This document shows positions 55,694 to 59,975 of a stretch of 64,000 nucleotides of DNA, in pieces. Under the pieces are notes generated by a model that had not been told where the DNA came from, ran no database searches, and was given only the letters and a program-made list of their open reading frames with translations. Numbering within the stretch: position 1 is the first letter of the stretch; each line of letters starts with the position of its first letter. Source of the stretch: Flavobacterium sp. (lineage in GTDB: Bacteria > Bacteroidota > Bacteroidia > Flavobacteriales > Flavobacteriaceae); assembly GCA_014379405.1 (NCBI GenBank), contig JACMLU010000029.1, forward strand, positions 30,409 through 94,408, given 5' to 3'. Made by a program: the position numbers and the translations under genes.

Positions 55694-57256
55694 ATGCCAC
55701 AAGAACTTCTCTTTCAAGTATCGCCAGAAATAGCCACAAACGAATTGTTGCTCAAACAACATATTTCCAAATTAATTCGGGTTGATGCCAAAGAAATAAA
55801 ACACATTTCTATTCTAAAACGTTCGATTGATGCACGACAAAAAGCCGTGAAATTCAATTTGAAAGTAACTGTTTATTTGGTTGGTGAACTTGTTCAGGAA
55901 GCCAAAATAGAATTACCAGAATATAAAAATGTAGAAAACGCTCAAGAAGTTATCGTTGTGGGTGCTGGTCCTGCGGGATTATTCGCTGCTTTGCAATTGA
56001 TAGAATTGGGCTTAAAGCCAATACTTATAGAACGTGGAAAAGACGTTCGAGGAAGAAGAAGAGATTTGAAAGCCATCAACAGGGATCATATTGTCGATGA
56101 AGATTCCAATTATTGTTTTGGCGAAGGTGGAGCAGGAACTTATTCGGACGGAAAATTATACACCCGTTCCAAAAAGCGTGGCGACGTGACCCGAATCTTG
56201 GAATTATTTGTGGCTTATGGAGCTTCACACGATATTTTGGTCGATGCCCATCCACATATTGGAACCAATAAATTACCACAAATCATTCAGGATATGCGGA
56301 AGAAAATAATCGAAATGGGAGGAAAAGTCCTTTTCGAAACTCGATTGACCGATATCATCATAAAAAATAATGAAGTGCAAGGTATTGTTACCAAAAATGG
56401 CGACACAATTCTTGCCAACAAAATAATCTTGGCCACTGGACATTCTGCCCGAGATATTTTTGAATTATTAGACAGAAAACAAATTTTTATCGAAGCCAAA
56501 GCTTTTGCCTTAGGCGTTCGAGCCGAACATCCACAATCCTTGATTGACAGCATTCAGTACAGTTGTGATTATCGTGGAGAATATTTACCACCATCGCCAT
56601 ATTCTATTGTGAAGCAAGTAGGAGGAAGGGGAATGTATTCTTTTTGTATGTGTCCCGGTGGCGTGATTGCGCCTTGTGCGACAAGTCCGGGCGAAGTGGT
56701 TACGAATGGATGGTCTCCATCCAAAAGAGATCAGGCCACTGCCAATTCAGGAATAGTTATCGAATTGAAACTCGAAGATTTCAAGCCTTTTGCCAAATTT
56801 GGCGCTTTGGCTGGGATGGAATTCCAAAAAAGCATCGAGCAAAAAGCTTGGCATTTGGCAGGAGAAACCCAAAAAGTTCCAGCCCAGAAAATGGTCGATT
56901 TTACACAAAACAAAATATCTACCAACATCCCAAAAACGTCTTATGTTCCCGGAACCACTTCGGTGGAAATGGGCGAAGTTTTTCCAGGATTTCTTACCCA
57001 AATATTACGGGAAGGTTTTGTTGAATTTGGTAAATCAATGCGTGGTTTTTTGACCAACGAAGCCGTTATTCACGCGCCAGAATCCAGAACATCATCGCCA
57101 GTGCGAATTCCCAGAGATGCAGAAACATTGGAACACCTTCAAATTAAAGGATTGTATCCTTGTGGTGAAGGTGCAGGTTATGCTGGTGGGATTATCTCGG
57201 CAGCAATTGATGGCGAAAAATGTGCGCTGAAGATTGGGGAGGTTTTGAAGAAATAG
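55694..57256 (+). CDS. NAD(P)/FAD-dependent oxidoreductase
   Basis: GAGPAG, GEGGAGTYSDGKL, FCMCPGG, GEGAGYAGGI.SAA.DG. Confidence 0.9.
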   Translation: MPQELLFQVSPEIATNELLLKQHISKLIRVDAKEIKHISILKRSIDARQKAVKFNLKVTVYLVGELVQEAKIELPEYKNVENAQEVIVVGAGPAGLFAALQLIELGLKPILIERGKDVRGRRRDLKAINRDHIVDEDSNYCFGEGGAGTYSDGKLYTRSKKRGDVTRILELFVAYGASHDILVDAHPHIGTNKLPQIIQDMRKKIIEMGGKVLFETRLTDIIIKNNEVQGIVTKNGDTILANKIILATGHSARDIFELLDRKQIFIEAKAFALGVRAEHPQSLIDSIQYSCDYRGEYLPPSPYSIVKQVGGRGMYSFCMCPGGVIAPCATSPGEVVTNGWSPSKRDQATANSGIVIELKLEDFKPFAKFGALAGMEFQKSIEQKAWHLAGETQKVPAQKMVDFTQNKISTNIPKTSYVPGTTSVEMGEVFPGFLTQILREGFVEFGKSMRGFLTNEAVIHAPESRTSSPVRIPRDAETLEHLQIKGLYPCGEGAGYAGGIISAAIDGEKCALKIGEVLKK

Positions 57257-57260
57257 GTTT

Positions 57261-57395
57261 TAATGTTCTGTTACTACAGCGGGTTTGGGACTAAATTAAG
57301 CCCTATTCTCGGATTTGCCAAATCTCCCAAATACAAAACCAACTTTCCAATAAGCCAATTGCCCAAATCCGTTGTAGCTGTTATGTGCAGTAATT
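57261..57395 (-). mobile_element. attC-like imperfect palindrome downstream of the HEPN gene
   Basis: Minus strand GCACATAAC ... CTACAACGGATTTGGG / CCCAAACCCGCTGTAG ... ACATTA; 16-bp stem with two G.T pairs on the plus strand. Confidence 0.7.
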
Positions 57396-58583
57396 ATTTT
57401 GAATGTTTTGGGAGGTTATCATTCCATTTCAAAACTTGATAAGTTGCTTTATATAAGAAGGTGTTCATTTGAGACAAATCCTCAGTTTTACATTCAAACG
57501 AATCAGGTGTATAGTTTGATTTAGCGTGAACAATACTATTTCGTGTACTATATAATATTTTACCTAACGATTGAGAAATAGATTCAATCTTATCAATTGA
57601 TAAGTTGTAATCAACAGTATTGCTATTTATACCAATATTTTTACATATTAATTTTCTGGTATTTTCTGGCAACAAGTCAAACAAATCTATAATATCTATT
57701 CCAGTAGACAAGACCGTTTTGGCTAGTTCACTATCGGATTTAGATTTTCTTAATGATTCTGAAATATCTATAATAGTATCTAGATCACTTGATTTTGTGT
57801 TTTTATATTTAATTGAATCTAATTTTTTTACTAAAACCTCATACGCTTTTAGCTTTGCTACCTTTGGTGAGAAATATTCAATAATTTTATAATAGTATAA
57901 AAACTTGATTTCGTCATCCGAAGTTGATTGTGCTTTTAGATAAAACTCAATGGCTTCACTATAATTGGGTAATTCGGATATATTAATTGTAGAGCTTGGA
58001 TTTTCTAAATTTTCTTCTTCCTCTTCCTCTTCCTCATACCCATAATAATCAGAATCAAAATCGTGTAGTTCAGAGATTTCAATTATCATATTGGTGGCTT
58101 GATTAAATTCAAGAATAAAGCTCTTTAATAGTTTAGTAGCTTCATCTATTGACATCTCTGCCTTTGATTTTTTTAGAATTTCAATACCATAATATGTTGT
58201 CAAAGGAGATGCATATTTAGAATAAAGATTAAGTTTGACGTTAGCAATGCCAATTAGCAAAGGTTTTGTTAAAATTGTAATCTTAAAATTTTCATTTTCA
58301 AAGTTAAAATTTAATTTTTCGAATAGAATTTCTAAAGAATCATTTAGAAAGAATGGGAATTGAATTTTATATTTTGTTCTTGCAAAATTTTTATTCATTT
58401 CCAGATACTGTATTTCGTTTGCAAATTCTATAAGTTCTTCATCGGAAATTTCATAATGTTCAATTTCTCTTGGAAAATCGAATACAAAATTTTCATTTCA
58501 TCTTCTTGAAATACATCAATTGAAATGTCATTATTATCAAAATATTCTAAAATTTTATCAACTGATTCTTTTATAGATTTCAT
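57394..58583 (-). pseudogene. Frameshifted HEPN-domain (ApeA/MauJ-like) protein in a gene cassette
   Basis: ATG 58583 MKSIKESV..; shift near 58497 into the frame of the 334-aa ORF; C-terminal RNSIVH (RxxxxH) motif; AT-rich. Confidence 0.7.
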
Positions 58584-58595
58584 TGTATGTATAGG

Positions 58596-58680
58596 AATTA
58601 TTGCACATAACTTGTAGATTGGTCTGATAAAACTACCACTATCCACCTTAAACTAGGTAGCTTTGTCTGATAAAAGTAGT
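58596..58680 (-). mobile_element. attI-like site / cassette 5' junction
   Basis: GTTATGTGCAATAATT (58611-58596) is complementary to 57380-57395 at 15/16; direct repeats GTCTGATAAAA at 58622 and 58665; internal IR 58626-58637/58656-58667. Confidence 0.55.
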
Positions 58681-58695
58681 GTTTATCTCTATTTA

Positions 58696-58726
58696 CAAAC
58701 CTAATGATTTTACTTCCTAAAAGCAA
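58696..58726 (-). promoter_or_regulatory. Bacteroidota sigma-A promoter driving the cassette (Pc analogue)
   Basis: Minus-strand TTG (58726-58724), 20-nt spacer, TAGGTTTG (58703-58696). Confidence 0.6.
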
Positions 58727-58844
58727 TCATTTCCAAAGAAACAGAAATATAATTTTCTAGTGAAAATACTAATGTTAAATAAAATCCTAAATCCCAATTC
58801 CTAAATCTTAAATAAATTATCTTTGCGCACTGAAAAAAGTCCTT

Positions 58845-59975
58845 ATGAAGTTTGATTTATTACAAAAAGATCCACATACCAAAGCCAGAGCAGGAAGTAT
58901 AACTACTGATCACGGCGTGATTGAAACCCCTATTTTTATGCCTGTTGGAACGGTTGCCTCGGTAAAAGGAGTGCACCAACGCGAATTGAAAGAAGAAATA
59001 AACCCGGATATTATCCTCGGGAATACCTATCATTTATACTTGCGTCCACAAACCCAAATTCTCGAAAAAGCGGGTGGTTTGCATAAATTTATGAATTGGG
59101 ACAGAAATATTTTGACCGATTCTGGAGGTTACCAAGTGTATTCGCTTTCGGCCAACAGAAAAATCAAGGAAGAAGGCGTAAAATTTAAATCGCATATCGA
59201 CGGATCCTATCATTTTTTCACACCCGAAAATGTGATGGAAATTCAACGAACCATTGGTGCCGACATCATTATGGCTTTCGACGAATGTACTCCTTATCCA
59301 TGCGATTATCGTTATGCCCAAAAGTCGATGAAAATGACACACCGTTGGTTGGACAGATGCATCAACCATTTAGAAAAAGTGCCAACAAAATATGGTTACG
59401 ACCAAACTTTTTTCCCGATTGTTCAAGGTAGTACCTACAAAGATTTGCGCCAACAATCAGCAGAATATATTGCGAATTCAGGTCAACAAGGGAACGCCAT
59501 CGGTGGACTTTCGGTAGGAGAACCAGCCGAGGAAATGTATGCGATGACCGAAATAGTTTGTGAAATTCTTCCAGAAGACAAACCAAGATATTTGATGGGC
59601 GTTGGAACTCCAATCAATATTTTGGAGAATATTGCCCTAGGAATTGATATGTTCGACTGTGTTATGCCAACACGAAACGCCCGAAACGGAATGTTGTTTA
59701 CTGCAAATGGAACCATCAACATCAAAAACAAAAAATGGGAAGATGATTTTTCGCCAGTAGACGAAATGGGACACACTTTTGTGGACACGGAATACACGAA
59801 AGCGTATTTGCGTCACTTGTTTGCCGCCAATGAGTACCTTGGAAAACAAATTGCCACAATACATAATCTTGGGTTTTATATGTGGTTGGTTCGTGAAGCC
59901 AGAAAACATATCTTAGCAGGAGATTTTAGAACTTGGAAAGATATGATGGTTCGCAATATGAGCCAGAGACTTTAA
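58845..59975 (+). CDS. tgt: tRNA-guanine(34) transglycosylase
   Basis: TPIFMPVGT, NTYHL, TDSGGYQV, GGLSVGE, DMFDCV.PTRNAR. Confidence 0.97.
   Translation: MKFDLLQKDPHTKARAGSITTDHGVIETPIFMPVGTVASVKGVHQRELKEEINPDIILGNTYHLYLRPQTQILEKAGGLHKFMNWDRNILTDSGGYQVYSLSANRKIKEEGVKFKSHIDGSYHFFTPENVMEIQRTIGADIIMAFDECTPYPCDYRYAQKSMKMTHRWLDRCINHLEKVPTKYGYDQTFFPIVQGSTYKDLRQQSAEYIANSGQQGNAIGGLSVGEPAEEMYAMTEIVCEILPEDKPRYLMGVGTPINILENIALGIDMFDCVMPTRNARNGMLFTANGTINIKNKKWEDDFSPVDEMGHTFVDTEYTKAYLRHLFAANEYLGKQIATIHNLGFYMWLVREARKHILAGDFRTWKDMMVRNMSQRL

Follow-up and report, generated by a model that had tools for sequence, protein, structure and literature searches.

What lies between a queuine tRNA-ribosyltransferase gene and an oxidoreductase gene in this Flavobacterium chromosome, and how did a single gene come to stand there between a promoter-like site and a long hairpin? 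The window, that is the whole stretch of 64,000 nucleotides that was analysed, belongs to contig C5 of a genome (G000 hereafter) whose assembly is 86% complete. In a tree of tgt sequences, named Flavobacterium records group with its genus-mates, which points to a Flavobacterium host. Both flanks are host genes on the plus strand: on the left of the locus the divergent tgt gene (58845..59975; PF01702, E 1e-159), and on the right a convergent gene for a FAD-dependent oxidoreductase (55694..57256; PF21688, E 1e-67), which is also the neighbour in genome G280. Our comparisons make it probable that the locus consists of a promoter and an attI-like dock holding one attC-ended cassette, that it is one of about 21 such docks in the genome, and that it was loaded by a Bacteroidota tyrosine recombinase encoded elsewhere (C15:244-1287).

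All parts of the unit are read on the minus strand. It opens with a predicted Bacteroidota-type cassette promoter (58696..58726), in which TTG (58726-58724) is followed after 20 nt by TAGGTTTG (58703-58696) with a -7 box of the form TAnnTTTG; this motif had been recognised in the original prediction, and the consensus with which we compared it comes from the accessible text of PMC2483708. The sigma-70 scan of the promoter is one that covers other promoter types. An exact 20-nt copy of the -7 region stands before an unrelated gene of the same genome (C10:123276-123295), where no head follows. The attI-like head (58609..58703) comprises the -7 box, two boxes and the core TACAAG|TT, with a putative crossover between 58611 and 58610. 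The boxes (58657-58678 and 58614-58635), which account for the repeat-rich appearance noted earlier, are 22-nt direct repeats, 43 nt apart and 86% alike, and their left halves have decayed from the palindromic consensus. A head model built from other genomes only still finds this head (E 5.6e-6). The gene cassette (57264..58610, 1347 bp) begins with the TT at the head junction and runs up to, but does not include, the terminal TT, a definition of the unit derived from cassettes common to several arrays; the same unit occurs elsewhere with its boundary at GTT. Its 5' end (58596..58611, GTTATGTGCAATAATT) is its own R' half and forms with 57380-57395 the predicted pair of inverted 16-mers, complementary at 15/16. 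These last bases are the R'' box (57395-57380) of an attC-like site (57261..57395), whose stem pairs 57377-57362 with 57289-57274 and whose terminus is indeed ACATTA (57266-57261), a damaged core cut as ACA|TTA. Compared with intact copies the site is 3 nt shorter next to R'', and at its core G is replaced by A. As described from the sequence alone, the 16-bp stem starting at 57274 departs from perfect pairing only by two G.T pairs on the plus strand, the cassette bottom strand. The region 57270-57392 folds with a z of -2.39 on this strand (3 of 200 shuffles were as good) and of -0.80 on the other, and the longer region 57255-57400 reaches only -1.35; by these predictions the stability of the window's own stem is only moderate. 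The cassette is probably locked in, and the head may still be able to accept new cassettes.

The cassette contains one gene, as predicted, which is however not intact. It is related to ApeA/MauJ-like HEPN proteins (57394..58583, about 394 aa; PF17419, E 7.5e-7) and a one-base frameshift near 58495 divides it, with 51 codons following from the ATG at 58583 and the other 334 in another frame. Full-length relatives, named 'Apea-like HEPN domain' in UniRef, have 388-398 aa. In run X1, which may be the source sample, 57353-59108 is present without any difference, the frameshift included, and the break is therefore in the DNA and not a copying slip. PADLOC gives a weak DzbB match (E 2e-7); an anti-phage role would be a guess.

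Neither of the two sites is peculiar to this locus. The head model from other genomes finds 21 heads in G000, only one of which has a recombinase gene beside it, and two successive attC models find 21 (iterative search) and 27 attC-like sites; on a locally shuffled version of the genome the head and attC models give no matches. The original prediction depended on the motifs not being single-copy, and they are not. Scatter of heads over many places is not an effect of assembly, because the near-complete genome G271, in two contigs, has 26 distinct heads (40 rows minus 14 reverse-strand echoes). All 43 aligned heads have the GTT, with which the motif used for their selection also ends; of 82 docks, 63 end in it. 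The -7-like box is also conserved among heads, and promoter activity is predicted for it. The two boxes covary as an inverted pair (82% paired versus 32-44% when slid, with a structure derived from the same alignment); since each box is a palindrome, this fits a hairpin as well as two symmetrical protein sites. Some heads of G000 stand in tandem or inside arrays (C3:85878, C3:87006, C17:134878), and the pair at C17 is accompanied by a duplicated upstream segment. Plasmids searched with the window attC and the head at C15 gave no relevant match.

Twenty of the 27 attC-like sites of G000 follow a head of their own strand at no more than 6.5 kb, and none follows one of the opposite strand (about 0.5 expected); the docks at C7 73-79 kb and C3 82-89 kb hold several each. 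Downstream of recombinases there are 111 matches, all on one strand, and none in 515 kb upstream, with a model that was iterated on those same loci. The stem covaries (19 of 23 pairs changed on both sides; 92% of cells paired versus about 40-46% slid), and of 49 intact sites 44 give the better fold on the bottom strand. The family is a structure-conserved hairpin with YAAC ... GTTR ends and a preference for the bottom strand, to which the window copy belongs with a damaged core. RNAalifold shows a conserved CT bulge in the consensus. Classical attC sites carry their extrahelical bases on the L'' arm, and the bulge here is on the opposite arm. The start of the first cassette is complementary to its own R'' box at 4.47/7 positions on average in 17 docks (shuffle maximum 3.65) and at 5.12/7 in 32 recombinase-adjacent heads (3.66), above all 2000 shuffles; these means include wrong automatic choices of the AAC, among them that for the window (2/7, the true box giving 7/7). 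Related genes may nevertheless carry different attC bodies, with the switch just after AAC (L062/L102), which stays unexplained by a simple cassette model.

Other elements are found in or near these sites. A two-gene element, encoding a 387-aa putative transposase and a tyrosine recombinase of about 320 aa with 35% identity to the platform enzyme, lies inside attC just after the R'' AAC and opposite to the cassettes at several loci (L213 and L214, which are G271 C1:995000-1021000; L069, L181, L183), six copies being found in one G271 array. A similar element end follows the window cassette in X2 and X3 (window 57378). At L133:13480-17367 and in its upstream copies, a 1.9-kb unit present three times in one array starts just after AAC and ends at GTT, and is perhaps another attC-targeting element. 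A REP-like folded repeat precedes the recombinase or the head at L066, L067, L069, L073 and L275-L291, and a related short hairpin is inserted in some G000 attC bodies (C6:134700, C21:218100).

Which enzyme could recognise these sites? In agreement with the original prediction, no recombinase gene is found in the window, on the rest of contig C5 or beside the window dock. A candidate for the co-occurring IntI/Xer-like recombinase is encoded at C15:244-1287, a 347-aa tyrosine recombinase with PF00589 and PF13495 domains, and a co-oriented head (C15:139-237) lies behind its stop. Its match to TIGR02249 comes in two pieces and reaches 204.6 bits for a cut-off of 265; the closest matches are NF040815 (219 bits, cut-off 220) and PDB 4a8e. 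It has about 15 residues where VchIntI4 (2a3v) has about 57, a gap of about 42, and thus does not carry the IntI-specific additional domain, the insertion by which Cury et al. define IntI in the accessible text of PMC4889954. G000 has a separate XerC-like gene, and none of its PF00589 matches was identified as IntI. Adjacency of recombinase and attI-like head, absent at the window dock, is present at C15 and is a general property of the relatives: among 80 loci, 16 of which were left out as too short, the head core stands just behind the recombinase stop in 56 of 64, versus 35 of 1220 control windows, and six of the eight remaining loci have it after one intervening gene. A single conserved gene separates recombinase and head in L094, L096, L101, L105, L106, L108 and L097; we take it to be Bro-N-like in six of these and Fic-like in L097. 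Recombinase neighbourhoods are varied (76 upstream clusters among 86 loci), a full platform occurs on a Chryseobacterium plasmid, and we estimate that about 6500 stretches of the genome collection match the recombinase patterns. In G271 the head behind the resident recombinase is divergent and missed by the model that its 26 docks match; this enzyme may not serve these docks, since its own head diverges from theirs. The idea that the recombinase gene is itself a cassette was rejected, with no attC upstream of it.

We infer from the distribution of these genes that docks are what persists of platforms which reached new positions and then lost the recombinase gene. The 3' end of this gene (its last 21-104 nt) has left remnants in front of 17 of 80 docks without a full gene, two of them near contig ends. 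The G000 dock on C6 occupies the position where G271, G280, L069, L070 and L073 keep the recombinase. In a comparison of 71 genomes at tgt, whose loci were picked by similarity and are not a random sample, 6 keep the recombinase beside tgt (one copy looks broken) and 11 have the head only, and presence and absence are interleaved within one clade. The platform at C15 is absent from the same place in five of five relatives. The window dock is likely to descend from such a platform, although no recombinase remnant could be detected at it, its intergenic DNA gives only poor alignments with recombinase-bearing tgt loci, and its clade stands apart from them in a weakly resolved tgt tree. The tgt-divergent position looks like an insertion hot spot; in the relatives L036, L041, L042, L045, L211 and L212 it also hosts CRISPR-Cas9 loci and other variable genes, named by reading the sequence. 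Carriage of docks by the REP-like repeat was considered and rejected: only 5 of 82 docks in six genomes have its end motif in front of them, and the window dock has none, although the repeat is common at the tgt docks of the F. zhoui clade. General flanking of the recombinase gene by a repeat of its own 3' end was likewise rejected, being clear at 1 of 78 loci, marginal at two, and present in G219. At C15:1334-1408 (L031) and in L290 (G219), the recombinase gene is directly preceded by a copy of its own last 25 codons, joined at TTTGTA, which suggests a rare re-entry into an old dock.

Evidence that docks exchange their contents comes from the tgt position itself. The same order is found in G280, with tgt, a head that can be aligned, an unrelated 266-aa gene (its start complementary to its own end), an attC and the oxidoreductase gene, and G213 has a decayed head and a third gene. 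Recombinase-less heads equidistant from tgt in G000, G280 and G213 are thus followed by three different genes, and the expectation that homologous motifs bracket different genes holds at this very locus. More generally, 12 of 12 cross-genome dock pairs with a common upstream flank differ behind GTT, a set that includes three doubtful orthologues (one pair has nothing but the recombinase gene in common, and for two it may be just a repeat). Conversely, the window cassette is found in X2 and X3, which are possibly one campaign, about 97% identical and without the frameshift, behind a head of another box type, and in X5, 96% identical, behind an attC. The flanks of the dock are 86-87% alike between G000 and G280; the exchange is therefore younger than the dock. 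Junctions map to the GTT, as had been asked of them: the identity of X2 and X3 to the window cassette stops 5 nt upstream of it, and cassettes common to several arrays start at GTT behind a head or an attC alike (L062/L107). A duplication in L064 ends at an attC GTT, so that the hairpin travels behind its gene. Cassettes of this family thus move as units from G|TT to attC. The empty oxidoreductase-tgt locus joined at G/TT, which had also been anticipated, did not turn up in an examination of 75 tgt loci and 24 oxidoreductase ends. Two exact-pattern scans of metagenome contigs found nothing.

These observations can be assembled into a mechanism in which cassettes would move as units in the manner of integrons, the attC folding on its bottom strand and recombining with the head at G|TT. 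Docks would arise when a platform (recombinase, promoter, head and array) loses its recombinase gene; such a dock would then take further cassettes in trans and express the first one. Decay of the terminal attC would lock the cassette in, and older cassettes would be removed by recombination between attC bodies, leaving the ancestral right end. The damaged right end common to G000 and G280 suggests such a loss of older cassettes between similar attC bodies. Catalysis at recombinase-less docks would occur in trans. The dispersed sites and the cassette capture of the original prediction are supported, and the dock, described there as a dispersed att site, looks more like a whole integron-like platform whose recombinase gene has been lost.

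A different history can be written with the same parts: docks may have taken their cassettes while a recombinase was still adjacent, lost the gene and been inert since, the differences between species reflecting independent losses. The recombinase remnants at about a fifth of the docks and the interleaving of presence and absence at the tgt position are as expected from such fossils, and so are the decayed head and broken cargo of the window and the state of the attC cores, of which, in a rough count, about 9 of 27 are intact in G000 versus 82 of 104 beside recombinases. Independent losses, however, hardly explain three different genes behind recombinase-less heads equidistant from tgt, or a cassette 96-97% identical elsewhere in a dock whose flanks differ by 13-14%. 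We therefore regard inert docks as unlikely, and continue to prefer docks loaded by an enzyme encoded elsewhere.

Could the cargo have been swapped without any site-specific enzyme, by RecA-type replacement with the repeated head and attC body as arms? Copies of heads and attC bodies occur throughout the genome, the damaged right end is common to G000 and G280, and at some orthologous docks the head boxes differ too, which indicates that homologous replacement probably also acts alongside site-specific capture. As the sole process it is quite improbable. Identity in X2 and X3 stops 5 nt upstream of the GTT, and the heads there belong to a different box type; cassette contexts switch between head and attC exactly at GTT; and the available part of PMC13148043 reports an insertion in Riemerella without flanking homology. 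A third reading, in which a cassette of an ordinary integron would have entered a chance GWT site (attG) behind a host promoter, as a SALIN, appears very improbable. The single attC and the absence of a nearby integrase would suit it, and this route has been shown for IntI (10.1101/2022.09.11.507474, in the part available), but the 100 nt upstream are homologous to the site behind the recombinase, by which this reading is largely refuted, and none of the PF00589 matches of G000 could be assigned to IntI, the head-adjacent one scoring under the TIGR02249 cut-off. Finally, that the hairpin is just a REP-like or MITE-like repeat or a terminator, linked incidentally to variable genes, is hardly credible in spite of its being a multi-copy palindrome of about 135 bp, since Rfam gives no match, no terminator-like site was found, its strand and side relative to recombinases are strict, and the gene-specific complementarity of the ends with exact GTT junctions refutes it.

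The dock family described here may bear on resistance genes in Riemerella anatipestifer, a duck pathogen. The part of PMC13148043 available to us describes how this species takes up aph(3')-IVb, lnu(H) and blaRATA independently of homology, and integration of aph(3')-IVb in the chromosome with 27 bp upstream and 140 bp downstream. That part notes an attC-like fold, names no recombinase, head or family, gives the mechanism as unexplained, and names plasmid NZ_CP073240.1 as a carrier. On this plasmid (L296), which carries tet(X), blaOXA, lnu(I), estT, aadS and APH(3') genes, the attC model gives 13 matches corresponding to 12 sites, all on one strand and between resistance and toxin-antitoxin genes. 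Its 262-aa APH(3') gene, which we take as the published aph(3')-IVb, has GTT 29 nt before the ATG and an attC GTT 139-141 nt after the stop, with complementary ends; the published 27 and 140 bp ends thus fall inside GTT cores. No recombinase of this family was found on the plasmid, and a weak head match lies at 1001-1091 (E 0.58). Recombination of a Polaribacter phage attC with IntI1 has been shown according to the accessible text of PMC9892861. A broader proposal, which we put forward tentatively and hold somewhat more doubtful than not, is a distributed integron of Bacteroidota, in which a recombinase lacking the IntI insertion would serve all of the 20-26 promoter-bearing docks of a chromosome, while its own gene would be lost from docks and enter them again. 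As the boxes covary, heads would be read by shape or symmetry and not by sequence, and the system would explain how, without homology, Riemerella and its kin take up free DNA carrying tet(X), blaOXA, lnu and aph genes. If docks are loaded as we suppose, the IntI insertion is dispensable for cassette capture at hairpin sites, and one enzyme can load many separately expressed sites, not one array. The match of GTT cores to the published Riemerella ends makes resistance gene capture in Flavobacteriales directly testable.

How does the system compare with those already known? The dispersed cassette capture was predicted to be poorly described in Flavobacteriaceae, and a full-text literature search, with subscription journals outside its coverage, indeed found no description of it; this locus contributes a swap seen in both directions at a single dock, signs that recombinase genes have been lost, and junctions that agree with published ones. 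The best sequence matches of the enzyme at C15 are XerA, XerC and XerD, but unlike these it has varied neighbourhoods, occurs on a plasmid and nearly always precedes a head. The Riemerella unit of 27 bp, gene and 140 bp has the GTT and attC ends of the dock family. SALINs are defined without another att site nearby (10.1101/2022.09.11.507474, accessible part); the window dock has a single attC and no nearby integrase, and differs by its attI-like head 1.2 kb upstream. In CALINs, attC-ended cassettes lack an adjacent integrase, and integrase loss and action in trans have been proposed for them (Cury 2016, PMC4889954, text available in part). The docks share this lack, but they keep a promoter and an attI-like head and still exchange cassettes, and with one attC the window dock stays below the number of at least two that CALINs have. 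According to the same partial text 95% of CALINs are without a recognisable intI remnant, whereas about a fifth of the docks keep a remnant of their recombinase. A close published case is a CALIN with its own attI in a Shewanella prophage (PMC9892861, as far as accessible). There is also much likeness to integrons themselves, especially the sedentary chromosomal ones. Both have a tyrosine recombinase with a Phage_int_SAM_4 N-terminal domain and, at the head of the array, an attI-like primary site ending G|TT behind a promoter, which for the docks is a predicted one, and in both the cassettes start at G|TT, end in a bottom-strand hairpin and are complementary at their start to their own R'' box. 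Unlike IntI, the dock recombinase has no IntI insertion, and its gene reads in the direction of the array; two palindromic boxes, with sequences that covary across lineages, make up the head, and a single chromosome carries about 20-26 scattered heads. According to the accessible text of PMC9024848, the list of IntegronFinder 2.0 has one complete integron for Bacteroidetes proper, and such surveys report almost none there because their enzyme test needs the IntI insertion. Judged from its sites and junctions, a system that fails the IntI and adjacency tests appears nevertheless to work like an integron.
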